Assembly: GCA_047602745.1 (NCBI GenBank)
Contig: JBLKOJ010000005.1
Span: 1 to 41,384, forward strand
Source: Candidatus Woesearchaeota archaeon
GTDB lineage: Archaea; Nanobdellota; Nanobdellia; Woesearchaeales; UBA583
Length of the DNA: 41,384 bases
Direction of reading: 5' to 3'
Part shown: piece after piece, positions 7,158 to 35,294 of the stretch
Layout: each line of letters opens with the position of its first letter
How positions within the stretch are numbered: the first letter of the stretch is position 1
Notes under the pieces: model-generated
What the model saw: the letters and a program-made list of their open reading frames with translations, nothing else
Database searches by the model: none
Told to the model about the DNA's origin: nothing
Position numbers and translations under genes: made by a program

Positions 7158-7167
7158 CGTAATAAAA

Positions 7168-7983: not shown

Positions 7984-7984
7984 A

Positions 7985-8305: not shown

Positions 8306-8316
8306 GGAACTGAAAA

Positions 8317-9048: not shown

Positions 9049-9050
9049 GA

Positions 9051-9398
9051 ATGGAAAATGAAGTATTGTATAGAGGAAAATCAATTTCTGATTTGAAATC
9101 AATGGAAAAAGAAGAGTATATTCAATATTTGCCTTCATCTCAAAGAAGAAAAGTAATGAGAGGATTTACTCAGCAAGAAGAAAAGTTACTTAAAAAAATT
9201 AGAAATAATGAAAAGAATATTAAAACTCATTGTAGAGATATGGTAATTATTCCAGAGCTTTTAGATGTTAAACTCTTAGTATATAATGGTAAAGAGTTTA
9301 TTCAAATACATCCTACTATTGAAACATTTGGAATGAGACTAGGAGAACTAGCTCCAACAAGAAAAATTGGTGTGAAACACGCAGGAGGTAAGAAGTAA
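9051..9398 (+). CDS. rps19: 30S ribosomal protein S19
   Basis: uS19 core LVYNGKEFIQI...GMRLGELAPTRK..KH. GGAGG at 9035-9039. Confidence 0.9.
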   Translation: MENEVLYRGKSISDLKSMEKEEYIQYLPSSQRRKVMRGFTQQEEKLLKKIRNNEKNIKTHCRDMVIIPELLDVKLLVYNGKEFIQIHPTIETFGMRLGELAPTRKIGVKHAGGKK

Positions 9399-9399
9399 A

Positions 9400-9900: not shown

Positions 9901-10610
9901 TTGAGAGAAAAATTGTAGGAGATAGATTTTTAGAGTTTAAAATTGATACATATATTAGAGAAACTCTAAAAGATGTTCCAATTGCAAGTGTAGCATATGA
10001 AAAAGTACCACAAGGAGAAAAAGTAACAGTATTTACAACGGCTCCAGGACTTGTTATTGGAAGAGAGGGAAGTAATATTAAGCAACTCACTAAAGATTTA
10101 AAAGAAGTATTTGGTCTTGAAAATCCTCAAATTAAAATTGGAGAAGTAGATCAAAGATATTTATCAGCTCCTATTGTTGCTAAAATTATTTGTAACAACT
10201 TAGCAAGTTTTGGTCCACAAAAATTCAAACTTACTGCCTTTAAAGCAATTCAAAATATTATGGTCTCAGGAGCAATGGGATGTGAGATTAGAATTACTGG
10301 AAAAATTCCTTCAGCTCGTGCAAAATCATGGAGATTTTTTAAGGGGTATTTAAAAAAGACTGGGTATGTAAGTGATTTTGTAATTGATTTTGCAGTCGAT
10401 GCTGTAACACTAAAATCAGGAGTAGTTGGGGTTAAAGTTAAAATTATGAAGCCTAACACACCACTTCCAGATAAGGTACAATTTGTAGAACAAGTATTGC
10501 CTCAAGAAGTAAAAGATTTGGTTGAAAAAGCTACTCCTAAAGCAGGAGATGAAGAAGCTGAAATCGAAGCAGTTAAAGATGAAATTGCAGTAGAGGAGGA
10601 TAGAAGATGA
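9897..10610 (+). CDS. rps3: 30S ribosomal protein S3
   Basis: KH-domain region VFTTAPGLVIGREGSNIKQLTKDL. Start overlaps the rpl22 stop (ATGA). GGAGG at 9883-9887. Confidence 0.95.
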   Translation: MIERKIVGDRFLEFKIDTYIRETLKDVPIASVAYEKVPQGEKVTVFTTAPGLVIGREGSNIKQLTKDLKEVFGLENPQIKIGEVDQRYLSAPIVAKIICNNLASFGPQKFKLTAFKAIQNIMVSGAMGCEIRITGKIPSARAKSWRFFKGYLKKTGYVSDFVIDFAVDAVTLKSGVVGVKVKIMKPNTPLPDKVQFVEQVLPQEVKDLVEKATPKAGDEEAEIEAVKDEIAVEEDRR

Positions 10611-11788: not shown

Positions 11789-12420
11789 TCTATAATTTTA
11801 TTTGTTGCTTTGGCAAATTCATGAATTAAAACATTGTCACCATTTTTCATAGAGTAGGTGTAATTATCAAATTGTTGCTTTATAACCCATTTAACAAATT
11901 CTCTTCTTTGAATATCATTAAACTTAGCATAGTATTTAAATGTAGCACATTCATAATTCATATCACAATATCCAAATCTTGGGTCTCTTTGTCGAGAAGA
12001 ATGTTTTTGTTTATTAAAAGGAAAGTTATACTTTTTTTTCTCTATAAGCTTATTGATAAGAGGATGAAGAGGGCAAGCAGTACAAGTTGAGTTAAATTGA
12101 ACTACATTTGAACATAATCCACTTGGAGTTACAACATCAGGGTTGGGATTTAGTCTATCTCTAAAGAGAAGCATTTTATACTGAGTTGGATGTTTTATTG
12201 AATTAAAGTCTTTAGTATTTATTTTTAAATCTCTATTAACTTCTTCTTTACTTTTAAAATTTCTTCCACAACATCCATAGCAAGAAATTTTTAACTCAGG
12301 AATCTGACATGGAGTAAGAGGAAGGGCCCAAGTTGAAGAAGATATCGAGGTGTGAGAAAATGTGGGTAGAGAAAAATTATTGTCTTTTGATGTTTTCATA
12401 TTAATGAAAAATATATTCAC
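11785..12420 (-). CDS. hypothetical cysteine-cluster protein (possible metal-binding, distantly YkgJ/CxxCxxCC-like)
   Basis: Nine Cys in clusters: C-x8-C-x2-CC, C-x8-C-x2-C, C-x5-C. 211 aa with no TM. Convergent 4-nt overlap with the phosphatase-like gene. Confidence 0.45.
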   Translation of the reverse strand: MNIFFINMKTSKDNNFSLPTFSHTSISSSTWALPLTPCQIPELKISCYGCCGRNFKSKEEVNRDLKINTKDFNSIKHPTQYKMLLFRDRLNPNPDVVTPSGLCSNVVQFNSTCTACPLHPLINKLIEKKKYNFPFNKQKHSSRQRDPRFGYCDMNYECATFKYYAKFNDIQRREFVKWVIKQQFDNYTYSMKNGDNVLIHEFAKATNKIID

Positions 12421-14753: not shown

Positions 14754-14838
14754 TATTTAAAATAAAAAGAGAAATCAACTTTTTTTGATATTTATACTTA
14801 GCAATTATTATTTATCATCTTTTAAGTTTCACTAAAAA

Positions 14839-14846
14839 TTTATAAA
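14839..14846 (+). promoter_or_regulatory. TATA-box-like TTTATAAA 22 nt upstream of the ATG at 14868 (leaderless-type promoter)
   Basis: Read in the sequence. The spacing fits an archaeal TATA-to-TSS distance, so the TSS falls at or next to the start codon. Confidence 0.4.
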
Positions 14847-14867
14847 TCAACTTTAGATAAAAATAAC

Positions 14868-17012
14868 ATGAATTCAATACTTAAATATTTGCTTAAAGGT
14901 CAAATATCTATTTTTGTAATTATTGCAGTTATTATTTTAATAGTTGGAATTTTAGCGTTGATGTTATTTTCGTCTTCTTCAATTTTTCAACAAGAAACGC
15001 CCGGATTTAGAGTTCAAGAGTTCACCCAACAATGTTTACTTCAGCAAGCGGAGTTTGCAATTAGTGAGGTTGCAAAAAAAGGTGGTTGGTATTATAAAAA
15101 AGGAACTCAGAGATTTGCAAGGCCTAACGATTTTAACCTTTTAATCAGTAGAGCTCAAGGTTTTGAACATAATTTTTATGGAAATTTAAAATACTGGGAT
15201 TATTTTGATGAAAACTCAAATGAATTTGAAAATCAAATACCCTCTCTAGATGATTCACAAGACCCTTATTCAATTAAAAATCAAGTAATACGGCTAATGG
15301 AAGAAACTATTAATGATCATTGTCTACAAGATTTTGCTTCTTTTACAGAAGTCTATGAGATTGATAGAGACCTTACAAGATTGCAAATTTCTTCAACTTC
15401 TTTTGATCAAAATAGAATTATTTTTGATTTATATTTACCAGTTCAAGTTAGAACTTTTGAGGGTGATTCTTTTGAGAGTTTAGATAGATTTAGAGTAGAT
15501 ATTGAAAATAAAATTAGAGTCCCTTATTATATTGCTAACGACATTGTATTAGCACAACAGGAGTTAAGTTTTATAGAACAAGCTTATTTAGATTTTATAT
15601 ATATCTACCAAGATGCAGATGATTCAAATCTATTACCACCTTTTTATGATTTTAGATATGGAGTTACTGATTATTCAGTTATTTATGCTGAAGATAAAAA
15701 ACCACTTCTTCAAAGAATTTTTAATACTCATTCAAGAGAAGTTATTGTTACAGATTTAGCCTTAGACCTCGTACAAGAAGAGTTATTACAACAAACTCAA
15801 ACTTTACTTTTTAGAAATATTCAAACTCATCAAAGTCCTTTATTTTCAGAACTAGATGGTACTATGTTAAGAACTCAGCGTTTAAATCGAGAATATTCAA
15901 ATTATGTTGGAAATTTACATTATGAACCTTTTTTTCCAATTTCATTTTCTTTTTCAAATGGAAAAGGAAGTGGACAGGTTTTAACTCATAGCGTATTTAA
16001 TGAAGTTTTATTGATTGTTCCAGTTCAATATACAACATATCAGGCTGGATATGACGTTACACTACCAGTAATTTATGAAATTAGAGATAGTTCTGCAGTT
16101 AGAGATAATTTTGTATTTAATTTACCTTTGGAGGTTAATATTAGAAATAATAATCCTCTAAGAGCACTAATTGAAGCTGATTATAGATTAAATTCTTTAG
16201 AAGTTCAAGATTCATTTACTCCAACGTTTTGTAATGCTAATCACTTTATTTCTCAAGATGTTTCAATTGAAGTTAGTAAATTAAATGAGTTTGATGAAAG
16301 AGAACCTTTGAATAATGTTTCATTTATGTTTTATTGTTCAACTCAGCCTTCTGTTGCTTGTCAAGTTCCAATTTCAGATACAATTGAAAGATTTAATTCA
16401 AATCAATATGTCCTAAATCTCCCAATTAACTGTCCAAATTCTGAACTTGAAATTATTAGAGATGGTTTTATAAATCAAAGAGTTGAAGTGAGTCCATCTC
16501 TTGAAGAAGGAATTGACAAAAGAGTTACAATGATTACTCCAATTACTTTAGATTTCCATTTCTTTGTCGCTGGAAGAACAATTAATGTAGACCAAGAAGC
16601 AATAATTTTATTTGAGCCTAAAAATAATCCTGAATTTATTCAAGTTGTAAATATTAATTCAACTACTGATTTAAATAATCTAAATATAACTTTAGTTCCT
16701 GATGTGTATGAAATTACAGCATTTGTAATTGATAATAGGCAAGACATAATTCCTAAAGAAGAGGGGGAGAGAATATGTATAATTCCTGCTTTAAGAATTG
16801 GTTGTAGAACAACTCCAGACCTCCCTCAAATTGATTTGGAAGGGTGGATTATAAGTAGTTTTGAACTAGATAACTACATCATAACATTTAATGATTTACA
16901 ATTTGCAAGAAGAGTTGTAGCTGATATTCCTGGTGTCACATATCCTACATCTTATGATGACTTTAATCAACAAATGCCTAGATCTGAGAGAAGAAATATT
17001 AGGATTCAGTAA
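14868..17012 (+). CDS. large (714 aa) extracellular protein with class III (type IV pilin-like) signal peptide; function unknown
   Basis: N-terminus MNSILKYLLKG/QISIFVIIAVIILIVGILALMLF has a short basic head, a KG|Q prepilin-peptidase-type site and a hydrophobic helix. The rest has no motif I recognise. Confidence 0.55.
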   Translation: MNSILKYLLKGQISIFVIIAVIILIVGILALMLFSSSSIFQQETPGFRVQEFTQQCLLQQAEFAISEVAKKGGWYYKKGTQRFARPNDFNLLISRAQGFEHNFYGNLKYWDYFDENSNEFENQIPSLDDSQDPYSIKNQVIRLMEETINDHCLQDFASFTEVYEIDRDLTRLQISSTSFDQNRIIFDLYLPVQVRTFEGDSFESLDRFRVDIENKIRVPYYIANDIVLAQQELSFIEQAYLDFIYIYQDADDSNLLPPFYDFRYGVTDYSVIYAEDKKPLLQRIFNTHSREVIVTDLALDLVQEELLQQTQTLLFRNIQTHQSPLFSELDGTMLRTQRLNREYSNYVGNLHYEPFFPISFSFSNGKGSGQVLTHSVFNEVLLIVPVQYTTYQAGYDVTLPVIYEIRDSSAVRDNFVFNLPLEVNIRNNNPLRALIEADYRLNSLEVQDSFTPTFCNANHFISQDVSIEVSKLNEFDEREPLNNVSFMFYCSTQPSVACQVPISDTIERFNSNQYVLNLPINCPNSELEIIRDGFINQRVEVSPSLEEGIDKRVTMITPITLDFHFFVAGRTINVDQEAIILFEPKNNPEFIQVVNINSTTDLNNLNITLVPDVYEITAFVIDNRQDIIPKEEGERICIIPALRIGCRTTPDLPQIDLEGWIISSFELDNYIITFNDLQFARRVVADIPGVTYPTSYDDFNQQMPRSERRNIRIQ

Positions 17013-18025: not shown

Positions 18026-20500
18026 TTAATTTTTTTTATTTTTTAGTTTAAGTTCGTTTCTAATTAAATTTTTAATATATTTATCTATATTTGAATGTTG
18101 AGATTTTATATAATAAATTATACAGTTAGGATGTTTGAATATCGAAATTGAATTATTTAAACGTTTAGGAAGATAGCCATTTCTAGAATTGTTATAAACT
18201 ATTTCTCCAATAATCTTTAAATTTTTCAAAAGAAATTTAGTTTGAATTTTTGTTTTTTCTTTAGGGAATTCATTTTTCTTAATTGAATTTATTAAAGTTA
18301 ACTCATTGATAAGATTTTTTTGAATTTGAATTACATCTTTTTCAATTTCTTTTTTAATTTTTTTATATCTTGACGATAATTTTTCTAACTGAAATATTGT
18401 TTTATATTTAATTTCTTCAGGAAGAGTTGAGATGAAATTTTGATTAATTGTACCATCTTTTTGAATATATTCCAATAATTTATTAGAGTTTACTCCCAGT
18501 GAAATTTCAACTAATGAATTATATGAGTGAGATTTCACTTTAACTCTAAGTCCATTTTTAAATCTAATTACTACTCCTTCAAATGTATTGTTCCAAATTT
18601 TTTGTTGAGCTACAATTTCTTCAATTGAGGTGAAATTAGATATTTTTTTAATTATTTCAAAATTAGTTTTCACTGCTTCTTCTTCTAATTGAGAGTATGT
18701 TAATTCTTCTCCGCTTTGAGTATTTATACAGCTTAAAAGGATTAATTTTTGTTCATTTTTATAGTCAATTATAACTTTGCAGTTTGGATGAATAATTTCA
18801 CAAATATATGTAAAATTAGGATTCATTTTAGAAGTATTTATTTTAGATTTTAAAATATTTTCTCCAATCATTGCTTGCATGGAGTTAAGTTCTCCTCTAG
18901 TTGAAATATTCCACCTATTGTTATGATAGAAAATTATTCCTAAAACTCCATCTATTTTTTCAAATACTTCAAAAGATTCTTGTAATGGCAGTTTTTTTAG
19001 TTGTGTTGATTCATTTTCATTTATATTGAAAAATTTTCCAAATGGTCTTGCTACAATTTGATTTGTCAACCTATCAAAAATAATTCCTCTTGCTTGCATT
19101 GTATATGTATTCCAATATTCTTCATATATTGTTTTTTGAGTATAATTAAATAAAATAAGGTTATTTCTTTGAGAAGATTTTACATAACCCTGGCGTTCTA
19201 AAATTTTAAAATGATTAATTAAATTTTCTACAAGATTTGAACTTAAAAATTCATCTCTTTGATAATATGTTTTTTTAGCGGGGGTTGAAATAATTTCAAT
19301 TTTTTCAATTTCACAATTTAGAGTTTGAACAATTGCACCTCTAAGTTCTCCTCCAAACACACAGTAACCATCAAGTCCATAAAGATTTTTAGTGATTTGG
19401 GTATTTTGAACTTCTTGATGTCCAAAAAATAATCTTGGTTTTTCAGAAGTATAGTATTCATACCACTTTTTATCTCCAATAGTATTAAATGAATGAGTTA
19501 TAGGATTAAATGTTCTTGCAAAAAGAAGGTATTCTTTAGGTTGCCTAAATAAAGATTTTTCAGGATGAACTCCTGCATGAAGAACATAGTTTTTTTTAGC
19601 AATTTGAATCATAAAAGGTAGGGAGTCTAAATTTTCAAGTAATTTTTGATTATAAGTGAAATCGTATTTAGGAGATTTTTTGTCTAAATTGCAGTCTTTA
19701 ATGGTAACTTCTAAACCATGCGATATAATAATGTTATTTCCTCGTAAATATTTTTGTATTTTAAGTTCATGATTGCCTCTTACACTATAACAATGAGGAG
19801 AATATTTTGAATTGAAAAAAAATTCTAATACTTCTTTAGATTTAGGTCCTTTATCAACTAAATCTCCAACACTTACAATTGCTGTATTTTCAAGAGAATA
19901 TCCTTTAGATTCAAACTTATTTAGTAGTTCTTGAAATTCATCAAAACAGCCATGAATATCTCCAATAACTAAAAATTGAGAGTATTTATCACTAATATCT
20001 AAACAATAGGGATCAAAATCATGAATATTTATTAGAGAATGACATTCATCTATAAGTGGGGGTTCATACTCTTGTAGTGTTCTATATAGAACTTCTGAAG
20101 CTTCTTGATATGTTGTAGGATTAAATGTTAGATGTTTAGATTTTTCTTTGACTCTTTTTAAAATATTGTTGACACACTTTTTAAATGTAATATTTAAGTT
20201 AATCACTATTACATGATATTTACTATTAAAACCAATTGTTGTATAGTTTTCTCTTTGTTTTTGAGTATGATTAGTTCTATCTATTATAATATTTTCATTT
20301 TTATCGATTAATTGATTAAAAAGATCTAAATGTTTTTTTCTTCCTAAATTATCTTGGGAAATGATGGTATATTTTTGATTTGATATTTTTATCAACTGAG
20401 TTGCAAAAGTTGATTTGCCACAGCCTTGTAAACCTACTAGAATGATTAAAATGGGTTTTTTAATTGATTGTAAAAACATATTTAATTCCGAGATTTCCAT
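18026..20500 (-). CDS. trifunctional polynucleotide kinase / metallophosphatase / RNA-ligase-like protein (Pnkp-like RNA repair enzyme)
   Basis: P-loop GLQGCGKST (aa 23-31). Metallophosphoesterase motifs GDIHG (180-184), GDLVDKG (212-218), GNHE (242-245), HAG (308-310), GH (360-361). Ligase motifs KIDG (515-518), FTYICEII, EGVVI, RVKVKS, preceded by RGIIFD..ARPFGKFFNINE. Confidence 0.75.
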   Translation of the reverse strand: MEISELNMFLQSIKKPILIILVGLQGCGKSTFATQLIKISNQKYTIISQDNLGRKKHLDLFNQLIDKNENIIIDRTNHTQKQRENYTTIGFNSKYHVIVINLNITFKKCVNNILKRVKEKSKHLTFNPTTYQEASEVLYRTLQEYEPPLIDECHSLINIHDFDPYCLDISDKYSQFLVIGDIHGCFDEFQELLNKFESKGYSLENTAIVSVGDLVDKGPKSKEVLEFFFNSKYSPHCYSVRGNHELKIQKYLRGNNIIISHGLEVTIKDCNLDKKSPKYDFTYNQKLLENLDSLPFMIQIAKKNYVLHAGVHPEKSLFRQPKEYLLFARTFNPITHSFNTIGDKKWYEYYTSEKPRLFFGHQEVQNTQITKNLYGLDGYCVFGGELRGAIVQTLNCEIEKIEIISTPAKKTYYQRDEFLSSNLVENLINHFKILERQGYVKSSQRNNLILFNYTQKTIYEEYWNTYTMQARGIIFDRLTNQIVARPFGKFFNINENESTQLKKLPLQESFEVFEKIDGVLGIIFYHNNRWNISTRGELNSMQAMIGENILKSKINTSKMNPNFTYICEIIHPNCKVIIDYKNEQKLILLSCINTQSGEELTYSQLEEEAVKTNFEIIKKISNFTSIEEIVAQQKIWNNTFEGVVIRFKNGLRVKVKSHSYNSLVEISLGVNSNKLLEYIQKDGTINQNFISTLPEEIKYKTIFQLEKLSSRYKKIKKEIEKDVIQIQKNLINELTLINSIKKNEFPKEKTKIQTKFLLKNLKIIGEIVYNNSRNGYLPKRLNNSISIFKHPNCIIYYIKSQHSNIDKYIKNLIRNELKLKNKKN

Positions 20501-20968: not shown

Positions 20969-23900
20969 ATGAATTATTTAAAAAGTTTAATTATAATGAT
21001 AATTATTTTATTATTATTATCATATAGTTATTCTCAATTTGCTTCTACTCAAACAGTATGTTGTTACCAGAGTCAAGATAGCGACCAAAGTGGTGTCATA
21101 AGAACTGCATTTCATTCTAATTGTCAAAGTAGTGGTGGAATTAGTTTAGGAATTCCAAGTTCAGAACATTCTCTAGAAACAGGAAATGTGCAAGGAATAC
21201 CTACTAATTGTGGACAATTAGTGGTGGATAATGGAAGAGAGTGTGTTCTTAGCACAGGTGAATTAAACTCCAACAGATTTTTTTTTAATTTTAACGGTCA
21301 AAATTATCCTTCTGTAAATAGCTGTGTAGAATTTAGAGAATGTTCAACACAAGGATGTAGTTGGCAAGGAATAACTCCCTCAACTCAACAACCCACTATT
21401 GGGGATGCAAGACCTAGTATAGGCGGAGATTTAGATTTCGATATGGTTGATGGAGATTTTATAGAAGAGGGTGGTATTAATTTAGGATTGAGTCCTTTTT
21501 CCACAAGTTCTATGAGCAGTTGTTATGAATCTATAGGGCCTTTTAGAGGATCTTTAATGTCTCGAACCATGTGTGAGAGAATAGGCACTGATTGTGTATA
21601 TGATCCATTAAGAGTTGGGATTTTAACTCAAAAAGTTGGAGATTATGATGAAACAGAAATTTTTTCAGATTTTAATAGAGATACGATGTGTGTTTCAAAA
21701 ACAAGTTCTATTAGGATGTGTGAGGGAATTAATTCAAGAGTTGTCTGTGAGAATTATCAGTCTAGACTAAATCCAAATGAGGGTTCTCTCATGCAAATTT
21801 ATGGATGCGAATGGAGGGAATTAAATCAATTGCAGGGAACTTGTATTACAAAAGATTTGTATTTTGAAAATTTAGGGGATGTAAAGAGTAAGTCTATTAA
21901 TGTTACAAGTGCTATTAGACGAGAAAATTTTGTTAAAAATCCTGTGTTTCAAGTAAGAAGTGGTTCAACTCTAGATTTTTGGAATGGTTCAGGTTATCAA
22001 ATTAGGTCTACTCAAAATTTTAATTATTTCTTAGGTGAAACTAGTGTGTTTTTCCCACAAGAAGCTGGTTTTATTGAACAACAAATCTCAGCAATACCCG
22101 TAAATTCTAATTTAGAATTGAAAGTATTTGTATCGGGTTCTGTTGTGAATGTATTTTTTGACGAAGAGTTTATACCTAATTTAGAATATGAAGAGGGAGA
22201 TTTTAACCCTTATTTAGTTTCAAGGGGAGAGTTTAATTCAGATATAAAAGTATTAAGATTTGAAGTGCCTAATTCTGTAGAAACTGCCAATAGAATTTTA
22301 AGAATTGAACCTACTGGAAGAACTAAGATTTTTGGAGTGAGTTTAGCACTTATGTCTGGAGATTTGAGTTCAACACTTCAAAATCCTGTTCAAGATATAA
22401 ATCACTTCAGTTCTTTTCCTCCAAATTCATTTAATTGTAACATATGTTCACAAGGAATTTTTGCGGGCCTTTGTAGTGAACAAACAATGAGTCAATTTGG
22501 AAATTGTGAGTTAATTTCTCAATCTTTTGATACTCCTTATAGAACTGGACTTGAGAGCTCCATTAATCCTTACACCACTTCAAGGGGGATGGCCAATATA
22601 TTTTTAGAGGAGGATATGGTGTTTTGCGGCTTGTATACTTCAAGAAGTAGATGTGAAGGAGACAACAAATTAAATTCTCAAATATCTAAGTATCACTTAA
22701 ACCAAAATGGACTTTGTAAATGGATATCTAATCCCTCCTACCCCAACGGAGGGACTTGTGTTAAAGATTCAACAGGAGATGGTAATCCCGATACATTTAA
22801 TAATGGTGGGCGTTTATCATTTATTTCGTCTTCAAGTGGAGCATCAATTATTGACAATTATAATTTTCAAACTGAACATACGTCATTAAATGATTTCCAG
22901 TTAAGTTGTGATTCTTATCCACCATCAATATACATAGAATTATATAAATCTTACATAGGAGATGACGCAGAGTTGAGAACCGATAGAACTTCACTTCCTT
23001 TAGTTTCAGAAAAACCTGGAGTTATAAGATATGCAGTTGTAAGAATTGAAAATCAAATCTCTCCTGCATGTAATGTGTTTGAAAATTTTAATTCAACAGT
23101 CAGATTAATATTAGAATTAGATGGACAGAGAATCTTGACTCCTTTAGCAACTTCTCTGTTTCCAGAATATAATGGTGCTGAGTTTTTTCAAACAGTTTAC
23201 ACAAACGAAGAGTTTAGAAGCAAATTTGGTGCTATAGATTTAAATACTCTTGACAATTTTATTTCAAGAGGTACAATTAGGGCAATTGATAGTTCAGGAA
23301 ATGTTCAAAAAAACAGAGTAAGTTTAAGAGGAGGTAAAGGGATTGAAGATTTTATGTTTGAATTAAAGACTGAACCTCAAACATATGAATTATATTCTTT
23401 CTCTAAGTTGTATTTAGATAACATTCAAATGCCTATTGAAGTGAGTGATTTACGTGAAACGTGTTCAGTAATTCTTGCAGATTTGGACAATGATATGATA
23501 ATTGGTCAATTTGATAACATATCTCTTTTAGATCTTAGAGATGAAGGATTTGAAATAGGAGCTAAGTATAGTGCCTACGCTAATCAAGAGAGAAGATCCG
23601 ATTTTTTTAATATTTCTTACCAAGTTTCTTGTCAAAATATTTTTGACCAACATCATTCAGTTGCTCAAAATAGGATTTTTTCAACTAGAGATGAGTTAAT
23701 TATTTTATCTTTTGGTTCTGAGGAATTACGAAATTCTGATAATGTTCCTTTTTTTGATTTAAATTCTTATGAATTAAACTTAGAGTTTAGGGCTTTAGAA
23801 GGAGTTTCATGTTCTCTTATGACATTGGTAGGAGACTCCTCTGTTGAAGCATCAGTTGATGCAATAATTAAAGAACCTGTAGAACTTAGTTCTCAAATAT

Positions 23901-26896
23901 CGCCTAATTATAGTACCCATCCTCTGTACTTCAATAAAAATTTAAATTTAGAACCATTTTTACAAAGAGGTGATTCTAGTTATGATGGAACATACAGACT
24001 TACTTTAGTATGTAATTTGCTGAACGATAGACCTTTTGAAAAAGAATTATTTTTTGAATTAAATAGTTATATCCCCGATATAAGTGAGTTTATAATTACG
24101 CACATTGATGATAAAAAGTGGGTTGAAATAAATAATCAAATTTATATTGATGCATTAGGAGAAAATCTACTTTCTTCTGACAACAGCCCTATAAATGAAA
24201 AAATCAATAACTATATTAGAAACAACTTAAAATTAAATTCTCAGGATAGTCAAATTGACTTTGATACTATTAGAGAGATTAAATTGTGTGATATTGAGAT
24301 TCCTAAAAATACTTTAAGAATAAATCAAAATTTATTTTCTTTAACAGAGTCTGCGAATTGCAATGTTTTTTATGATTCTGAACTCTCTTCGATAATATTG
24401 GAAACTCGTTTAGAAATTCAGACTAACTGGGGAACTCTTAATAGTAAAGTAATTCGAACAAATTTAGAGACTAAAGAACCAAATATTAATATAAGAACAA
24501 GAGATGGAACTTCATTTGGAAGATTAATTGAAAATAATTTGTATTATAAAGGAGATAATCCTGAAATTTTAATTGATTTAGGCTTATCTGAATTTAGAGA
24601 GTTTAGTTGTGATATCACACCTATTGTAAATGGATTTTATCTAGATTCTTCCTCATTTGAATCCTCAAGTTCTTCTATGAGATTTACTCTTGCACAAATT
24701 CTCACCTCTGATGCTATGAATAATCTAGATAATATTGATATTCAAATGGAATTAGAATGTATTGAGCATATATTTAATAAAAAATTAAATCTTGAAGTCT
24801 CTTTGATTAAAGATGAGATTATACCAGAAATTGAGTCCATTGAATTTATAGGTTTAGGGGATAATTGGGTTTATCCTTCCCATGGAACGCCTCAAATAAA
24901 TAGTGATATTCAAATAGATTTTTCAAGAACAAATAATTTTGTAAGTTGTCAAGTTTTACCAGTTTTTGATTCAAATCCAATTGCTCAACATGTAAATATT
25001 AAGTCAGTTAAAGGTAGAGATACAAGTTCTTTGGTTTTAGAAGATGTATTGACTTTAGTAAGAAGAAATAATGATTTATCTCCTTTAGTCTCATTATCAA
25101 ATTCAAACGTTATAAATAATGTAGATTTTTATGTAAGTGTAAGATGTGAAAATGGGGCAGGAGGAGTTGGCAAGAGAAATTTCTCACAGTATTCATTAAA
25201 CTTGTTTGATTTTGGAAGTGTTAATGTTAGAGGCAAATTAAATAATGATAAGAGGTTAAATCTTGAAATTGATACGTTAGCAAATTTAGGTTCTTCAATT
25301 ATTACTATTAGAGATAGAAATTCAGATTCCATCCTCTTTAACGGGCCTTTGAGTTCTTTGAATTCTGAAATCTCAACTACTGGTTCAATTAACAGATATT
25401 TTATAAGGGGGATTGATATTGAAGCTCAAGATTTAGAAGATTCTCCCTCATATCCGTTAAATATTGAGTTTATAATTGGAGAACAATCACTAAGCACAGA
25501 TTTTAATATTTTAGTAGATAATACAAATCCTGAAGTTTTTATTAATTTAAACTCTAATGATGATTCAGTAGTATTTGAAAATTTTATTTCTGGAGAAATT
25601 ATAATTAGAGAGTCCCCCGAGTTTTCAAAAGGAATTTCTGAATTAAGTATTCAATTTAGAAAAGGCTCTGAGGTAATTTCAGAAATTATAGAGATGAATT
25701 ATAATGATCTATCTTACTCTATAGCACTTAATGAAGTTGAAGGTTTTCAAGAGTTAGAGGTAGGTTCATATTCAATTAGAGTTTCTGCAAGAGATTATTT
25801 TGGAAATCTAAATATATCGACTAAAGAGTTTGAAGTTAGTGATGAAATATTTATAAGTTTACTCTCAAGTATAAATGTGGGACTTTATGATTTTGATCCA
25901 AGTACTTGGTATACAATTAGTGAGTTTCCTGTTTTATCATTTGAATCGACTCGAGATCTTCAAAGTTGTTCCTTAATGCCTGGCTCATCAAGAGGCTATA
26001 TAGGAGGAGTTATTCCATTTGAAAATTTAGGTTCAAATGTTTTTGAATTAAATACGAGTGATCATAGGGAACTTTTTGAAATAATTGATGGTAAAAAACT
26101 TACACTAATTTCATGTCAAAGGTCAGATAGAGATGAAGAGTTTAGAGTTGGAGTTAATTTGTATAAAATGAATATTTTACCAGATTATGTTTTATCATTT
26201 GATTGGGGAGTAAATCAAATTATTCCACCAAATAGAAATTCAAGAACCGTAAATTTTTCAGTTATTCAAAAATCTGATTTTAGAGATGTGAGTTGTAAAG
26301 TCAATGTTAGAGGACAATCGATAGATAAAAATCTTGACTTAGTTTCTTCAACAGGCATTGGAAATTTTAGAGGTTCTGTTGACCTACCTGCTGGAGATTA
26401 TATGTTCTTTTTAGAGTGTATGAATCCTGTTGAGCAAAATGGAATTGTAAAATCTTATAATGTAAATATTGCTCAAGAAGCATTTAGAATTGATATTATA
26501 TCAGTTGAACACACAGGACTAGGATTTAAAAATGATAAGTTAAATTCAAATGTTGTTGAGATTCCAAGTCAAATTTCAACTCAACCGAATAAAGATTTAA
26601 AAGTTAGATTTACAAATAATAATCAAGCTGAAATGATTTGTACTATTGATACTACTAAGTCTGGAGTTGTAAATTTCCTCATTTCATTATTTAGAAATAC
26701 TAGAACTGCAACTAATGTTATATTGCAGGGTGTTTACGAGGGCATTGTTGAAATTGATGAAACTACAAATGAAATCAGAATTGAATGTAGAAATGAAGAT
26801 GGAAGATTTTCAAGTAGAACGTTTAGATTTCCTATTGAATATATAGACTCTTCCCAATACTCGATTGGACAAGTAAATGTTGAGGGTGAGAGATAA
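20969..26896 (+). CDS. giant (1975 aa) secreted/surface protein with repeated Cys modules and a possible CBM-like jelly-roll; function unknown
   Basis: Uninterrupted 5.9-kb ORF in an AT-rich genome. N-terminal signal/anchor LIIMIIILLLLSYSYSQ. Two similar Cys modules at aa 251-296 and 553-600. No C-terminal TM. Confidence 0.8.
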   Translation: MNYLKSLIIMIIILLLLSYSYSQFASTQTVCCYQSQDSDQSGVIRTAFHSNCQSSGGISLGIPSSEHSLETGNVQGIPTNCGQLVVDNGRECVLSTGELNSNRFFFNFNGQNYPSVNSCVEFRECSTQGCSWQGITPSTQQPTIGDARPSIGGDLDFDMVDGDFIEEGGINLGLSPFSTSSMSSCYESIGPFRGSLMSRTMCERIGTDCVYDPLRVGILTQKVGDYDETEIFSDFNRDTMCVSKTSSIRMCEGINSRVVCENYQSRLNPNEGSLMQIYGCEWRELNQLQGTCITKDLYFENLGDVKSKSINVTSAIRRENFVKNPVFQVRSGSTLDFWNGSGYQIRSTQNFNYFLGETSVFFPQEAGFIEQQISAIPVNSNLELKVFVSGSVVNVFFDEEFIPNLEYEEGDFNPYLVSRGEFNSDIKVLRFEVPNSVETANRILRIEPTGRTKIFGVSLALMSGDLSSTLQNPVQDINHFSSFPPNSFNCNICSQGIFAGLCSEQTMSQFGNCELISQSFDTPYRTGLESSINPYTTSRGMANIFLEEDMVFCGLYTSRSRCEGDNKLNSQISKYHLNQNGLCKWISNPSYPNGGTCVKDSTGDGNPDTFNNGGRLSFISSSSGASIIDNYNFQTEHTSLNDFQLSCDSYPPSIYIELYKSYIGDDAELRTDRTSLPLVSEKPGVIRYAVVRIENQISPACNVFENFNSTVRLILELDGQRILTPLATSLFPEYNGAEFFQTVYTNEEFRSKFGAIDLNTLDNFISRGTIRAIDSSGNVQKNRVSLRGGKGIEDFMFELKTEPQTYELYSFSKLYLDNIQMPIEVSDLRETCSVILADLDNDMIIGQFDNISLLDLRDEGFEIGAKYSAYANQERRSDFFNISYQVSCQNIFDQHHSVAQNRIFSTRDELIILSFGSEELRNSDNVPFFDLNSYELNLEFRALEGVSCSLMTLVGDSSVEASVDAIIKEPVELSSQISPNYSTHPLYFNKNLNLEPFLQRGDSSYDGTYRLTLVCNLLNDRPFEKELFFELNSYIPDISEFIITHIDDKKWVEINNQIYIDALGENLLSSDNSPINEKINNYIRNNLKLNSQDSQIDFDTIREIKLCDIEIPKNTLRINQNLFSLTESANCNVFYDSELSSIILETRLEIQTNWGTLNSKVIRTNLETKEPNINIRTRDGTSFGRLIENNLYYKGDNPEILIDLGLSEFREFSCDITPIVNGFYLDSSSFESSSSSMRFTLAQILTSDAMNNLDNIDIQMELECIEHIFNKKLNLEVSLIKDEIIPEIESIEFIGLGDNWVYPSHGTPQINSDIQIDFSRTNNFVSCQVLPVFDSNPIAQHVNIKSVKGRDTSSLVLEDVLTLVRRNNDLSPLVSLSNSNVINNVDFYVSVRCENGAGGVGKRNFSQYSLNLFDFGSVNVRGKLNNDKRLNLEIDTLANLGSSIITIRDRNSDSILFNGPLSSLNSEISTTGSINRYFIRGIDIEAQDLEDSPSYPLNIEFIIGEQSLSTDFNILVDNTNPEVFINLNSNDDSVVFENFISGEIIIRESPEFSKGISELSIQFRKGSEVISEIIEMNYNDLSYSIALNEVEGFQELEVGSYSIRVSARDYFGNLNISTKEFEVSDEIFISLLSSINVGLYDFDPSTWYTISEFPVLSFESTRDLQSCSLMPGSSRGYIGGVIPFENLGSNVFELNTSDHRELFEIIDGKKLTLISCQRSDRDEEFRVGVNLYKMNILPDYVLSFDWGVNQIIPPNRNSRTVNFSVIQKSDFRDVSCKVNVRGQSIDKNLDLVSSTGIGNFRGSVDLPAGDYMFFLECMNPVEQNGIVKSYNVNIAQEAFRIDIISVEHTGLGFKNDKLNSNVVEIPSQISTQPNKDLKVRFTNNNQAEMICTIDTTKSGVVNFLISLFRNTRTATNVILQGVYEGIVEIDETTNEIRIECRNEDGRFSSRTFRFPIEYIDSSQYSIGQVNVEGER

Positions 26897-30852: not shown

Positions 30853-31866
30853 ATGGATGATAAAATTTCTAAATCTTCAAAAGAGTATGTGTTAAAAAAA
30901 TCAAATTCTCTTGATAATTGGCCTGAAATTAGAGGATATAACGCAGAAGAGGAGTTTAATTTAGAGAATTTTCTAAAATCACTGACTACAACAGGCCAAC
31001 AGGCAACTGAACTTGGAAAAGCTATTGAAATTACTAAAAAAATGCGAAACGACAAAGCTACAATTTTCTTAGGATTTACTTCAAATGCTGGGACAAGTGG
31101 GATTAGAGAATATATTACGTATTTGTTTAAACATCAAAAAGTGCAAGTTGGATGTGCAACAGTTGGTGCAATTGAAGAAGATATTATTAAATGTTTTAAG
31201 TCATTTGTAATGGGAGATTTTAGAGCAAATGGAGCTCAACTCAGAGAAGAAGGTATTAATCGAACAGGAAATATTTTTATTCCAAATGATAGGTATGTAT
31301 ATTTTGATAAGTTTATGAGAATATTTTTAGAGCGTTTATTTAAACTTCAGAAAGAAACTCAAACAATTATTACATGTACAAAATTTGTGTATGAGTTAGG
31401 AAGAGAATTAGAATTACAACATGTTGAGAATAAAGAGGAGAGTTTTACGTATTGGGCGTATAAAAATAATTTACTCTTTTTTTGTCCCGCTCTTTTAGAT
31501 GGAAGTTTAGGAGATATGGTATATTTTTTTAAAAAAGAACCTCAATTCAGAGATTTTAAAATTGAAATGAGTGAGTATATTGTTGAACTTACAGATTTAG
31601 CTCTGAATTGTGAGAAAATGGGAATTATTGCTTTAGGAGGTTCAATTCCTAAACATGCTCTTGCCAATGCGGGATTATTTAGGGATGGAGCAGAGTATTG
31701 TATATATTTAAATTCAGGGTTAGAGATGGAAGGAAGTAACGCTGGTGCACCAATTGATGAAGCTGTGAGTTGGGGAAAAGTCTCTTCTTCTGCTCAGCGT
31801 GTAAAAGTAGAAGCAGATTTTAGTTTAACATTTCCCTTACTTGTTCTAGGAGGATTTAAAGATTGA
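30853..31866 (+). CDS. dys: deoxyhypusine synthase
   Basis: GFTSNAGTSGIRE...VGCATVGAIEEDIIKC, GGSIPKHA, EAVSWGK motifs of the DHS family. 337 aa. Confidence 0.9.
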   Translation: MDDKISKSSKEYVLKKSNSLDNWPEIRGYNAEEEFNLENFLKSLTTTGQQATELGKAIEITKKMRNDKATIFLGFTSNAGTSGIREYITYLFKHQKVQVGCATVGAIEEDIIKCFKSFVMGDFRANGAQLREEGINRTGNIFIPNDRYVYFDKFMRIFLERLFKLQKETQTIITCTKFVYELGRELELQHVENKEESFTYWAYKNNLLFFCPALLDGSLGDMVYFFKKEPQFRDFKIEMSEYIVELTDLALNCEKMGIIALGGSIPKHALANAGLFRDGAEYCIYLNSGLEMEGSNAGAPIDEAVSWGKVSSSAQRVKVEADFSLTFPLLVLGGFKD

Positions 31867-31883
31867 TAGTTGCTCTGCAACTA
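31867..31883 (+). terminator. hairpin TAGTTGC-TCT-GCAACTA immediately after the dys stop codon
   Basis: Perfect 7-bp stem read in the sequence. A second copy (loop TTT) lies at 32055-32071 in repeat unit 2. Confidence 0.4.
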
Positions 31884-31940
31884 GAATTCTTTTGGCTTAC
31901 TTTTCTTAGCGATTCGTAGATGAGTGTTAAAGAAAAGGAA

Positions 31941-32054
31941 GGATGGAGCATGTTTGGTTGGGGAAAGATTAAGGGTAATTCAATGTCAGTTAAAGTAGAA
32001 GCAGATTTTTCATTGACTTTTCCAATGTTAGTACTAGGAGGATTTAAAGATTGA
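31941..32054 (+). pseudogene. relic 3' end of a diverged deoxyhypusine synthase gene (about the last 38 codons, frame broken upstream)
   Basis: 31956-32054 translates to GWGKIKGNSMSVKVEADFSLTFPMLVLGGFKD*, versus SWGKVSSSAQRVKVEADFSLTFPLLVLGGFKD* in the live gene. Most differences in the last 21 codons are synonymous. Confidence 0.65.
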
Positions 32055-32194
32055 TAGTTGCTTTGCAACTAGAATTCTTTTGGCTGTCGTTTTCTTAGTG
32101 ACTTGAAAAGGAACGTTAAAGAAAAGGAAGGATGGAGCATGTCTCATGGGGTAAAGTATCTTCTTCAGTTCGGGTATTGAAAAAATAGCAATGC

Positions 32195-32202
32195 TTATAA
32201 AT
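32195..32202 (+). promoter_or_regulatory. TATA-box-like TTATAAAT 21 nt upstream of the mntA ATG
   Basis: Read in the sequence, directly after the repeat stub. Confidence 0.4.
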
Positions 32203-32222: not shown

Positions 32223-32531
32223 ATGGAAAACCTCAATAAAGAGATAATTTTGAAAACTTTACATGAACATAGAGACTTAATTAGAAAATTTGGAGTTAAG
32301 AAATTAATTTTATTCGGTTCATATGCAAGAGATGAACAGAAAGAAACATCTGATATCGATTTTTTAGTTGAATTTGGAGAAGGAAAATACAACATTGATA
32401 ATCATTTAGGTTTATTATATTTATTAGAAAACTTATTTAACAAAAAAATAGATTTAGTAAAACCTCATTTAGTAAGAAGTGAATTAAAAGATGATATTTT
32501 AGGTGGAATCCAACATGTTGCGGAAATATAA
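32223..32531 (+). CDS. mntA: MNT-type nucleotidyltransferase antitoxin (type VII TA)
   Basis: Minimal nucleotidyltransferase motif LFGSYARDE...SDIDFLVEF. Overlaps the downstream HEPN gene. Confidence 0.85.
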   Translation: MENLNKEIILKTLHEHRDLIRKFGVKKLILFGSYARDEQKETSDIDFLVEFGEGKYNIDNHLGLLYLLENLFNKKIDLVKPHLVRSELKDDILGGIQHVAEI

Positions 32532-32883
32532 TCTATTTTTAAAGGATATATTAGAGAATATTAATGATATAAAGGAGTTCATTAAAGATTATACATTTGA
32601 AGAGTTCATAGAAGATAAAAAGACAATTAATGCTGTTACAAGGAGTTTTGAAATAATCGGAGAAGCTGTTGCAAAACTTCCAGATAATTTGAAAAGTAAA
32701 TACAATTATGTTCCATGGAAAGATATTAAAAATTTTAGGAATATAATAATTCATCAATATTGGAGTGTGGATTATGAAGCTGAATGGAGTATTATTAAAA
32801 CAAAATTGGATATACTAGAAAAACAGATTAAAGAAATAATTGAAAAGGAAAAAATAGAAGAAACAGAAGTAAAATATAAGTAA
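32503..32883 (+). CDS. hepT: HEPN (DUF86) RNase toxin
   Basis: Rx4H motif FRNIIIHQY. Canonical pairing with an upstream MNT. The true start may be the Met at 32515. Confidence 0.85.
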   Translation: MESNMLRKYNLFLKDILENINDIKEFIKDYTFEEFIEDKKTINAVTRSFEIIGEAVAKLPDNLKSKYNYVPWKDIKNFRNIIIHQYWSVDYEAEWSIIKTKLDILEKQIKEIIEKEKIEETEVKYK

Positions 32884-33308
32884 ATGAAATCACCTCAAAT
32901 CGTTCCTTTCAGTCACTCGTTTCAAATTGGCTGTCGCAATCTCTCTATTTTACCCTCCTTACAGTCGGGAGAACTCAAAAACATCTCCAAGAAATTTGCT
33001 TAGCAAACTTCTCTTCGATAACGACTTGCAGTCTCTCGCTTATGCTCGGGCAATACAACAAATGGTTTAACAGAAATTCCTGCCGAATTTTCCCAAATTT
33101 TTCCTACGGCAAAACTTCTCTAAATTCCGATGTTGTATCCAATAAAAGCGAATTTTTGAAGTAATTTGAAATAAGGCTAAGTAGTAAGAAAAGTTTTTAT
33201 AATCAGTTATCTTTTCTTAAGATCTGGAAATTCCCAAAGAAATTAAAATTGTAAACGATACTATTTAAATTACTTCTCAAAGTAATAATTATGAGATTTT
33301 TCAATTTC

Positions 33309-34166
33309 TTATTCAATCTGTTTTAAATACTTTTTAGCAATGTAATCTACAAATTGATAATTCTCTAGTTTGCTATTTGCTCTTTCAAGTGCATCATAGT
33401 ATTGTTTTCTTTTCTTGTAATCAATATCTAACATTGGATAATCATTTTTATGTAATATATAATTCATTAATAATCTTGAAATTCTTCCATTTCCATCACT
33501 AAAGGGATGAATTGTAACAAATTTTAGATGACTCAGAGCAGCTAATCTTACAGGATGAATATTGTTTTTATTGTTATCATACCATTTAAAAAATTCATTT
33601 AATTCTTCTTCAACCTTTGAATAATGGCAAAAAACTGTTGAAGCACTCAAAACTTTGACATTATGATTTCGAATTTTACCTGAGATATCAGGATAAGTCT
33701 CTTGAAATAATTTTTTATGCCAGTTTAAAATACTTTTCAAACTAATTTCTTTTTCTTGTAATATCTCAAAAAAGACTTTGTAATGAGTTTTTGAAAGCTT
33801 AATATCATTTAAATCTTTATTTGGGTTTATATTTTCTTCAATTAAATGAACTGTATCTTTGAAATTTAGACTAGAACCTTCAATTGCTTGTGAATTGTAT
33901 GTAAATTTAATAGCAAATTGGGATAAATACTTATTTTTATAACTCTGAGGCATATTCTCAATCTCTTTTTTATTTTGTTTTCGCTTTTTTTCAATTGCAT
34001 TCTCAAATCTTTTTCTAAATACCTCCTCTTCAAACTCTTCTTGCATCATTGTAATATTTTTTGGAACTTCTTTTCCTACATATTTTTCAAAAGTTTTAGT
34101 ACTAGAATTTTCTCTAAAAGAATACTGAAAGTAATAATATTGATTCTTTTCAATAATTTTAACCAT
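33309..34166 (-). CDS. Fic/DOC family protein, class II (intramolecular inhibitory helix)
   Basis: Fic motif HPFSDGNGRISR. N-terminal SQAIEG matches the [ST]xxxE[GN] inhibitory motif. Confidence 0.9.
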   Translation of the reverse strand: MVKIIEKNQYYYFQYSFRENSSTKTFEKYVGKEVPKNITMMQEEFEEEVFRKRFENAIEKKRKQNKKEIENMPQSYKNKYLSQFAIKFTYNSQAIEGSSLNFKDTVHLIEENINPNKDLNDIKLSKTHYKVFFEILQEKEISLKSILNWHKKLFQETYPDISGKIRNHNVKVLSASTVFCHYSKVEEELNEFFKWYDNNKNNIHPVRLAALSHLKFVTIHPFSDGNGRISRLLMNYILHKNDYPMLDIDYKKRKQYYDALERANSKLENYQFVDYIAKKYLKQIE

Positions 34167-34370
34167 AATATGTATTGTCTGACATTATTAATAAATTTAT
34201 GTATTTTGATAAAAATGTCAGATAAAGAATATAATCAATTAACATTTCTCATAGATCATCTACAGTTCTTAAAAGTTTAAATAATATTATCTAAACCATC
34301 TCTTAGAGAATTAACTATCAAATATTCCAATAACTTTATAATACTATAATTCATAGTAATATATAGTAAA

Positions 34371-34616
34371 ATGGTTCAAACAACAATTAATTTAGGAGAA
34401 ATTGAAAATGGATTTGTTGAAATGTTTAAAGCTCAAAGAAATTTGAGTAATAAAAATGAAGCAATAAACAAAATTATTGAAGAATTTAAAGCACTCAAAA
34501 AAGAAGAGTTTCAAGAGAAAATGTTATCTTTTGAGTGTTCATTATTATCTGAAAAAGCTCTTGCAGAAGACTGGTTATCAAAAGAAGATGAGGAGGCTTT
34601 TGCTTATTTACAATGA
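34371..34616 (+). CDS. putative antitoxin of the downstream PemK/MazF-like toxin
   Basis: 81 aa. Its stop overlaps the toxin start (ATGA). The acidic C-terminus LSEKALAEDWLSKEDEEAFAYL resembles archaeal antitoxin tails. TATA-like TTTATAAT lies at 34335-34342. Confidence 0.5.
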   Translation: MVQTTINLGEIENGFVEMFKAQRNLSNKNEAINKIIEEFKALKKEEFQEKMLSFECSLLSEKALAEDWLSKEDEEAFAYLQ

Positions 34617-34930
34617 GCAGAGATATTTACTTAGTTGAATTTCCATTTAGTAATATTTCATCTACTAAAAAAAGACCTGCATTATTAGTTAGTAATTTAA
34701 AAGGTGAAAATGATATATTTATTCAAATATCAACTAAAGAAAAATTAACTAAAGACTATCAAATTAATTTATTAAAAACAGATTGTGAGGGAGAAATTAA
34801 ATTTGATTCATATATCAATTGTGATATGATATTTACATTACATAAAGATTTAATAATTAGAAAAATAGGTTCAATATCAGATAAAAAATCAAAAGAAGTT
34901 GAAAATATATTACAATCTTTATTTAAGTAA
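34613..34930 (+). CDS. PemK/MazF-family endoribonuclease toxin
   Basis: N-terminal DIYLVEFPFSN...KKRPALLVSN pattern and a size (105 aa) typical of MazF/PemK. Confidence 0.75.
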   Translation: MSRDIYLVEFPFSNISSTKKRPALLVSNLKGENDIFIQISTKEKLTKDYQINLLKTDCEGEIKFDSYINCDMIFTLHKDLIIRKIGSISDKKSKEVENILQSLFK

Positions 34931-34949
34931 TGATTCAATAAAAATATTC

Positions 34950-34976: not shown

Positions 34977-35294
34977 CTACATATAATCACGCCATTGGTG
35001 TCCACATTTTTCACATTTGTAAAACTGAGTTTCAGGTTCATCTCCAGCTCTCATCTGTTTAGTCCAGAAATATGCTTTATTGTGTTCACATTTAGGACAA
35101 GTTGCATCAGCGAGAGGATTAACTTCAGCTTCTGCGTCATCTCCTAATACTTCAAGCACTTTTTTTTTTTCAACTTTTTGAGATAAACTCATATCAGTTG
35201 TTGCCTTATTTACATGTCCACAACTAGAACACTTTATATCTTCTCCTGCTTTACCCATAATCAAAGCTCCACATTTTTCACAAAAATCTACCAT
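34977..35294 (-). CDS. tfs: transcription factor S (TFIIS/RpoM-like transcript cleavage factor)
   Basis: N-terminal Zn ribbon CEKCG...CSSCG. C-terminal TFIIS ribbon CPKCEH...QMRAGDEPETQFYKCEKCGHQW with the acidic DE loop. Confidence 0.9.
   Translation of the reverse strand: MVDFCEKCGALIMGKAGEDIKCSSCGHVNKATTDMSLSQKVEKKKVLEVLGDDAEAEVNPLADATCPKCEHNKAYFWTKQMRAGDEPETQFYKCEKCGHQWRDYM

Follow-up and report, generated by a model that had tools for sequence, protein, structure and literature searches.

'Gene capture' in Sulfolobus was reportedly described by She and colleagues in 2001. In Campbell-type integration by a single crossover, familiar from suicide plasmids, a homologous segment becomes duplicated around the insert, the position of the crossover sets which copy is live, and pop-out regenerates the circle. 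Integrated mobile genetic elements of Thaumarchaeota target the 3'-distal parts of protein-coding and tRNA genes and re-use one site in tandem (PMC6563490; review PMC8371274), and crenarchaeal attachment (att) sites span 29–69 bp (quoted in PMC6563490). Described here is a tandem array of gene ends at the 3' end of dys, the gene for deoxyhypusine synthase (DHS), in a 41,384-nucleotide stretch of DNA from a Candidatus Woesearchaeota archaeon (contig JBLKOJ010000005.1 of assembly GCA_047602745.1), referred to below as the window. A literature search combining dys, integrase and attachment site returned no report of dys as a target.

The dys array resembles archaeal att repeats in that the 3' end of a gene lies within a direct repeat, the first copy completes the open reading frame (ORF) with a replacement end and stop codon, the displaced end lies downstream, units are stacked at one site, and relatives have empty sites. 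Unlike those repeats, it contains neither an integrase nor an element body, with only 61–95 nt between copies, and the repeat of ~110–145 nt is much longer than the crenarchaeal 29–69 bp, with crossover positions that appear variable. Its likeness to Campbell integration lies in the duplication of a dys segment around inserted DNA, with the live copy set by the crossover position; unlike the textbook case it is natural, repeated and apparently lineage-crossing, the insert is only ~70 nt, and no circle was observed. The array has the topology of an insertion, its gene ends are allelic, it recurs in several lineages and has empty counterparts in others, and its noncoding backbone has diverged far less than the host gene. 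With roughly even confidence, it is interpreted here as a stack of small gene-end replacement modules produced by Campbell-type recombination into the dys 3' end.

The repeat and its allelic cassettes

The first-pass annotation of the window, made from its letters alone, described a 188-bp repeat in phase with the gene end and marked by TGGGG anchors at 31771, 31959 and 32147, and these are present as described, with a second full unit and a truncated third following the end of dys. The direct repeats comprise blocks of 104 nt (85% identity) and 67 nt (81%) at a spacing of 188/189 nt and a third partial copy of 25 nt (84%); they are the sole repeats of at least 40 nt above ~75% identity in the 41-kb window, and the best block reaches a blastn E value of 1e-22. 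Tandem Repeats Finder (TRF), at its thresholds, did not report the array. Each unit of ~188 bp consists of a 32-codon dys end beginning at W-G-K (the cassette), a stop and terminator hairpin, a 44–45-nt spacer with a hairpin of its own, and an edge reading GAT-GGR-GC. The lysine of W-G-K is the catalytic residue of DHS. Homology to the live gene begins ~15 nt to the left of the anchor chosen earlier, at GATGAAGC (31756), and the GTTGC-N3-GCAAC hairpins reported earlier lie at 31869–31881 and 32057–32069.

Two types of cassette, V and I, are distinguished by a saturated 7-codon loop 3' of W-G-K, which reads VSSSAQR in V and IKGNSMS in I. In the window, the dys body leads into a live V cassette with its hairpin and spacer A, then into a relic I cassette with its hairpin and spacer B, and lastly into the V' stub, after which come TTATAAAT and mntA (Table 1); the stub, too, translates as a dys end, EHVSWGKVSSSVRVLKK*. 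The edge in the relics reads GATGGAGCATGT..., compared with GATGAAGCTGTGAGT in the live gene, and a 28-mer running from spacer into relic edge, GTTAAAGAAAAGGAAGGATGGAGCATGT, occurs in two identical copies in the window and in none of 100 shuffles. Four independent assemblies (SRR28154543, 44, 47 and 48) agree over the whole array (100% identity), and the longest exact stretch common to two units is 29 nt, indicating that the array is not an assembly artefact.

Translation of the second unit yields WGKIKGNSMSVKVEADFSLTFPMLVLGGFKD, compared with WGKVSSSAQRVKVEADFSLTFPLLVLGGFKD for the live gene, in agreement with the first reading. Over the last 21 codons, V and I are separated by 12 nucleotide differences spread over 8 codons, with seven synonymous codon differences (AGT/TCA among them) and a single amino acid change (L/M), which corresponds to nonsynonymous (dN) and synonymous (dS) divergences of 0.10 and 0.82, respectively, by the Nei-Gojobori method. 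Twelve random substitutions left at most one amino acid change in 0 of 20000 trials (P <1/20000), and six, the case in which only half of the differences were neutral, did so in 0.3% of trials (0.003). These values uphold the earlier claim that both gene ends diverged under protein-level selection, and they depart from neutral decay of an extra copy, as do the relics of one relative (L057), which are fully open. The cassettes are dys alleles that diverged under selection on the protein.

Among 1273 dys homologues at E ≤1e-30, the nearest named DHS sequences come from metagenome-assembled genomes (MAGs) of Nanoarchaeota and Woesearchaeota. The loop of live DHS in the clade reads (V/I)KAN(A/S)x(S/K), and therefore the I-type is the canonical live end; VSSSAQR is live in this genome only and was found elsewhere solely as a relic. 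Relatives use both sets of synonymous codons (AGT TTA ACA and TCA TTG ACT) in their live genes, and loci L051 and L053 (handles of this form denote comparison loci) have live genes with the serine and threonine codons of the V-type.

Reversed order, recurrence and empty sites

A sister strain with 93% DHS identity, represented by 13 contigs from other samples (L003–L012), carries the two gene ends in reversed order. The live dys end of L003 is an I cassette whose coding nucleotides match the relic of the window up to the last codon, and its relic, 94 nt downstream, is a V cassette that shares 94.5% identity with the end that is live in the window. The window thus reads V, spacer A, I, and L003 reads I, spacer A, V, with the same spacer central in both. 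The proposal that the relic derives from another dys allele is borne out by this strain, in which the relic of the window is the live end. Identities between the two strains are 94% for the dys body, 94.5% for V against V, 96% for I against I and 95% for spacer A, so that all segments are, as judged by sequence identity, orthologous and at the baseline divergence of the strains. Because this divergence is equal throughout, both strains inherited the same parts, and the order alone differs. Each sample set shows one order (4/4 and 13/13 contigs), a count made on consensus assemblies, which limit the detection of switching.

Arrays occur in six lineages of the window's clade and in one lineage of a more distant clade (L044, 69% DHS identity). 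In addition to the window (V live, I relic, V' stub) and L003 (I live, V relic), they comprise L015/L036/L058, with an I-like live end, a spacer and a degenerate V-like relic; L055/L056, with two units and a stub; L057, with three fully open units; L059, with at least two units on a contig that stops inside the second spacer; and the distant L044, with two copies 63 nt apart that are identical over ~113 comparable nt and a scaffold gap inside the first copy. This gap of ~100 N (L044 9224–9323) was most likely caused by the repeat itself, so the number of units there is uncertain. The left edge of homology falls at the same place in L044 as in the other arrays. The cassettes of L057 differ by L/M and a terminal N only, and those of the window by the seven-residue loop and L/M.

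In every lineage, the copies are separated by the terminator hairpin and spacer only, amounting to 61–95 nt. Spacers stand solely between cassettes, and the last cassette lacks a spacer in 6/6 arrays for which the contig includes the distal end (window, L003, L015/L036/L058, L055/L056, L057 and L044). The expectation of empty sites in relatives was confirmed by L013, L051, L052, L053 and L037–L043, in which, as in L045 and L046, neither relic nor spacer-like DNA was found after dys. In L057 the last cassette ends in ...AAGGATTAA TTTTT, as does the dys gene of its array-less cluster mate L013, and from this sequence match the pair looks like an occupied and an empty site, with an L057 flank of just 49 nt. 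Plain tandem duplication would leave spacer belonging to the native flank after the last cassette; since spacer is seen neither after the last cassette nor in array-less relatives, the topology is that of Campbell-type insertion and not of slippage, with gene body, new end, inserted DNA, old end and native flank in that order.

The noncoding part of the module is much more uniform than the gene that it follows. A backbone of 69 noncoding nt, consisting of terminator and spacer A, is 95.7–98.6% identical among the window, L003, L057 and L059, compared with 82–94% for the dys bodies of the same four and 68–88% for their third codon positions. Between L059 and L003 the backbone shows 2 differences against ~21 expected at the third-position rate (binomial P ~1e-8, by our own arithmetic). 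Spacer A is 97.7% identical to the spacers of L003 and L057, and these two match each other at 100%. From these comparisons, the backbone behaves as if it were mobile or constrained. Within the window, the A and B backbones are 83% identical and spacers A and B 76–77%. The hairpin after the cassette is kept with compensatory changes across module variants, and the spacer stem-loop is present in 8/8 spacer variants examined. The L044 spacer has marginal similarity only to the spacers of the window's clade (p 0.009–0.02). The A-type module is always first in an array, with the B-type behind it, which is the order that entry of new modules at the live gene would produce.

The edge of every relic reads AAGGAAG-GAT-GG(A/G)-GC, with glycine where the live gene has a conserved glutamate, and in L044 the edge GAT-GGG-GC is the only difference beside an otherwise identical repeat. 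The cassettes themselves are patchworks: in L055 their left halves are identical and their right halves diverged, and in L057 the first unit has its loop in common with unit 3 and its ends in common with unit 2. The dys gene is mosaic as well, in that the first 150 nt of L057 dys (160–1176) are 92–94% identical to the window and L003 and 81–85% to L013, a ranking that reverses at ~500–650; this pattern is evidence, at the level of sequence, of what would be frequent homologous exchange between lineages. The order swap around one spacer, together with the mosaic cassettes, points to crossovers at several positions over ~145 nt, which would favour homologous recombination over one fixed att core.

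Proposed recombination and competing explanations

A circle consisting of edge, cassette, hairpin and spacer would recombine with the resident dys end over ~145 nt of homology. Such a circle might have been released by pop-out of a unit, might be a multimer, or might be all that is left of an element once larger. A crossover at the left edge would make the incoming end live and push the resident end downstream, giving V live and I relic as in the window. With a crossover at the right edge, within the 52-nt nearly identical block formed by cassette end and hairpin, the resident end would stay live and the incoming end would come to lie behind it, giving I live and V relic as in the sister strain. 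Either crossover would leave spacer A between the cassettes, matching the observed arrangement, and pop-out at one end of the homology followed by re-entry at the other could swap the order within one lineage. Both the circular intermediate and the enzyme are suppositions, and the analysis leans toward homologous recombination over a dedicated integrase. The obvious candidate for the origin of the first module is a remnant of a real integrative element. The array itself is most likely a by-product, either neutral to selection or selfish. A bolder version, which is considered rather unlikely, takes the 188-bp unit as a minimal, cargo-less mobile module, a selfish replacement end for an essential gene, carried from one DPANN lineage to another by pop-out and re-entry; it would persist because whichever copy comes first has to remain functional, and it may create a hotspot for defence or toxin–antitoxin cargo and for rearrangements.

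Several observations weigh against stacking by Campbell-type recombination. Conservation of the backbone is poorly explained by a neutral or selfish by-product, and together with the conserved GAT-GGR-GC edge it could mark the site of a sequence-specific recombinase, which would favour integrase-mediated integration. Local alignment of the spacer with dys was not significant (p 0.15–0.74), and no match to a spacer or to the array was obtained in Rfam at the gathering score or at E ≤1, leaving the source of the spacer and the origin of the module unexplained. No circular or free module was seen, and a circle of 188 bp is small. The passage between the window (V, I, V') and L003 (I, V) requires at least two events however it is drawn. 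Finally, all comparison loci are metagenome assemblies, each of which provides one consensus.

Classical site-specific integration, which was the first-pass explanation, supposes that plasmids or viruses of full size, bearing an integrase and an attP with a dys 3' fragment, integrated repeatedly at a fixed core and later lost their interiors, leaving an arm of ~70 nt; it is considered rather unlikely. What stands of it is the insertion topology, the replaced and displaced gene ends, and the empty sites, and what is missing is an integrase and an element body; on a single fixed att core, the conserved left edge and the order swap with mosaic cassettes point in opposite directions. The left edge GAT-GGR-GC is sharp and conserved in every array, bordering the ~113-nt identical repeat in L044, and it lies within the most conserved dys motif, which would suit a broad-host attB; the conserved backbone with two hairpins, and the archaeal elements known to integrate at 3'-distal parts of protein genes with tandem stacking (PMC6563490; PMC8371274), point in the same direction. 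Against this, Pfam searches detected no integrase domain among window ORFs of 90 aa or more, consistent with the earlier statement that none is left there, nor in the called genes beside dys in array-bearing loci with called flanks. Cargo between terminator and spacer was found in no array, and homology between the A and B backbones extends through the terminator–spacer junction, so there would have been one deletion, before the module spread. The elements that the first-pass annotation anticipated, carrying a dys 3' fragment beside an integrase, did not appear: five scans of viral contigs gave 0 matches for spacer, cassette, backbone and DHS, and no free element with the module, in a collection whose coverage of DPANN plasmids and viruses is not known. 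A metagenome scan with the pattern AATTCTTTTGGCTN{3,5}TTTTCTTA gave 19 matches, of which 0 had a dys 3'-end match and all were taken as chance, again with DPANN coverage not known. The order swap and the mosaic cassettes also misfit a single fixed crossover.

An ordinary ancestral tandem duplication by slippage or unequal crossing-over, inherited vertically and kept similar by gene conversion, would account for units in register with a period of 188, and the identical adjacent spacers in L057 and the identical cassette patches indicate that conversion or unequal exchange does happen. This explanation is nevertheless very unlikely given the missing terminal spacer (the last unit has one in 0/6 arrays), the dys flank of array-less relatives, which lacks spacer, the cassette divergence (dS ~0.8, dN ~0.1), and a backbone far more conserved between lineages than dys. 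A functional system is considered quite improbable, whether the silent cassettes would serve to switch the C-terminus of DHS, the spacer or relic would yield a small RNA or peptide, or either of the latter would act as an insulator or landing pad for the neighbouring defence island. Both cassette types are live in nature, the relics are intact (L057 has two fully open relic cassettes), the backbone and hairpins are conserved, and variable cargo adjoins the last cassette in four lineages, all of which would suit such a role; but the cassettes encode nearly the same peptide, many relatives lack the array, no switching is seen within sample sets (one order in each), and Rfam gave no match. The remaining explanation, that an assembler strung two strain alleles in tandem, draws on the fact that V and I are live in different strains. 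It is almost certainly wrong, because single-copy alleles contain nothing that corresponds to the unique DNA of the spacers, all four runs yielded an identical array, and arrays come from different assemblers and projects (Logan, SPAdes NODE, MEGAHIT k141, NCBI MAGs).

Known systems that share individual features with the array were also considered. As in Neisseria pilE/pilS and the IncI shufflon, promoter-less partial copies of a gene end lie beside an expressed copy that they are able to replace by recombination; unlike in those systems, the cassettes encode a near-identical peptide of a housekeeping enzyme, and no diversification, dedicated recombinase or within-population switching was seen. 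A silent-cassette variation system is disfavoured because the peptides are almost identical and each sample set, as assembled to consensus, has one order, and a diversifying cassette system is accordingly unlikely. Like integron arrays, the array has small hairpin-bearing units in one orientation, the newest nearest the fixed site, with toxin–antitoxin genes nearby, and GTTAAAG in the spacer is, by eye, a partial fit to the attC core GTTRRRY. Unlike integrons, it has no IntI or attI, its units carry no separate gene, and what is repeated is a chromosomal gene's 3' end; an integron cassette array is disfavoured for want of an IntI integrase. A diversity-generating retroelement, a kind of system common in DPANN archaea, was rejected, given that no reverse transcriptase domain is present, the differences are of all base types and not adenine-specific, and the L044 copies are identical. 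A relic serving as a small protein was rejected as well: the 44-aa ORF matches only itself in the database, has no in-frame start in L055, L057 or L044, and a 1-nt insertion accounts for its frame in the window and L003. A peptide role is therefore unlikely. Known RNA families were set aside as well, since Rfam gave no match, and no tRNA is present.

The neighbouring island and the meaning of the locus

The window is a low-GC (~28%) stretch of DPANN chromosome that encodes, among others, a ribosomal protein operon, SUI1, TFS and Cdc48. It also contains a 1975-aa ORF (20969–26896), followed by an ABC ATPase, and a 714-aa ORF (14868–17012), both without a Pfam match, and an 824-aa ORF (18026–20500) in which kinase, phosphoesterase and RNA-ligase domains are fused, resembling a Pnkp-type RNA repair enzyme.

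Table 1. Positions of dys, the array, the island and tfs in the window.
Feature	Position	Strand	Remarks
dys (deoxyhypusine synthase)	30853..31866	+	337 aa; Pfam DS 1.6e-87; last 32 codons are cassette 1
Left homology edge, live gene, GATGAAGCTGTGAGT	31756..31770	+	D-E-A-V-S codons directly 5' of W-G-K; live/relic alignment, five lineages
Cassette 1, V-type, live	31771..31866	+	WGKVSSSAQRVKVEADFSLTFPLLVLGGFKD and stop
Terminator-like hairpin 1 (TAGTTGC-TCT-GCAACTA), then AATTCTTTTGGCT	31867..31897	+	Inverted repeat
Spacer A, 44 nt	31898..31941	+	Inverted repeat; second stem-loop TTTTCTTAG...TTAAAGAAAA
Relic left edge GATGGAGCATGTTTGGT	31942..31958	+	D-G-A-V-S-like, live gene D-E-A-V-S; 1-nt indels
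Cassette 2, I-type relic	31959..32054	+	WGKIKGNSMSVKVEADFSLTFPMLVLGGFKD and stop; within 44-aa ORF 31920–32054, not conserved elsewhere
Terminator-like hairpin 2, then AATTCTTTTGGCT	32055..32085	+	Inverted repeat
Spacer B, 45 nt	32086..32130	+	Closest to L055 and L015 spacers
Second relic left edge GATGGAGCATGTCTCA	32131..32146	+
Cassette 3 stub, older V-type	32147..32188	+	WGKVSSSVRVLKK*; clear homology to ~32171 (84% over 25 nt), cut where island DNA starts
TTATAAAT, putative TATA-box-like element	32195..32202	+	Read from sequence; ~21 nt 5' of mntA ATG (32223); left end of island
Variable island, outside the array	32223..34930
mntA	32223–32531
hepT	32503–32883
Noncoding	32884–33308
fic	33309–34166	-
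81-aa ORF	34371–34616		Presumed antitoxin mazE
mazF	34613–34930
tfs	34977–35294	-

Beyond the array, the Pfam matches are MntA/HepT, Fic, MazF (PemK-like) and TFS. The first-pass annotation placed the scars next to a toxin–antitoxin island, which does adjoin the array; it lies beyond the last copy, however, and not between repeats. No dys-like repeat closing the island on the tfs side was found by tblastn or blastn. The content of the dys–tfs interval differs in every relative, comprising a DUF2321/DpnII-like gene in L013, a 1055-aa protein, an S51 peptidase and mazEF in L015, and a methylase/HinP1I restriction-modification pair, EamA and an insertion sequence in L051. A common cargo after the last cassette was considered and rejected, since the 1055-aa (L015), 1064-aa (L044) and 184-aa (L003) proteins are unrelated. 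The toxin–antitoxin island is a separate, independently variable insert, and the interval is a hotspot in its own right.

Several parts of the interval carry traces of their own histories. The fic gene is flanked by a diverged direct repeat of ~60 nt (68–77% identity; 33245–33305 and 34271–34331) that matches the region upstream of mazE in L015 (14988–15048), as if, judging from this repeat, fic had been inserted upstream of mazE with target duplication. In L051, a relative with 76% identity, a relic of the fic 5' end (14811–15031; 77% over 221 nt, matching window 34005–34225) lies beside a DDE transposase, and fic is therefore an old resident of the dys–tfs interval. In L003, the last 93 nt of mazF (11989–12081; 86%, matching window 34843–34935) are fused to the end of the unrelated 184-aa ORF, and this fusion marks where, on the right, a replacement of cargo ended, with loss of mntA, hepT, fic and most of mazEF. 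The mazEF genes (34279–34930) are 88% identical in nucleotides to L015 14996–15647, compared with 68–80% for flanking core genes, and a 75%-identical mazEF lies inverted directly after dys in L039 (11708–12246), in a clade without tfs synteny; the mazEF module seems to travel.

Between hepT and fic, the noncoding segment 32884–33160 has ~41% GC compared with ~25% around it, with no consistent ORF on either strand, no Rfam match, a fold z-score of only -1.5 and no counterpart in related loci. In L055 (4666–8514) a 422-aa gene and the rpl3-rpl4-rpl23 operon come after the array, and in the window that operon lies 25 kb upstream (6159–10610); on this evidence of gene order the L055 chromosome is apparently rearranged, with a breakpoint at the end of the array. 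In the second clade, the pair L039/L037 was examined as a candidate, and the indels beside dys were set aside as ordinary turnover with no dys repeats. In L038, an 18–24-nt motif beginning directly after the dys stop (2064–2087) has three more copies within 1 kb (2469, 2883 and 3093), which lie inside or close to an oppositely oriented 540-aa gene.

Little of the mobile elements and gene flow of DPANN archaea has been charted, and dys has not been described as an integration target. The locus is a clean natural record of an essential gene end repeatedly replaced without breakage, in which sister strains hold the same two ends in opposite order. For annotation it carries a warning, in that short ORFs 3' of dys are relics and not genes. 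If the array is only a scar, it marks dys–tfs as a variable hotspot, useful for finding defence and toxin–antitoxin cargo, for binning and for strain tracking. If the module does move alone, it would be among the smallest gene-targeting mobile units known and a marker of recombination between uncultured lineages.

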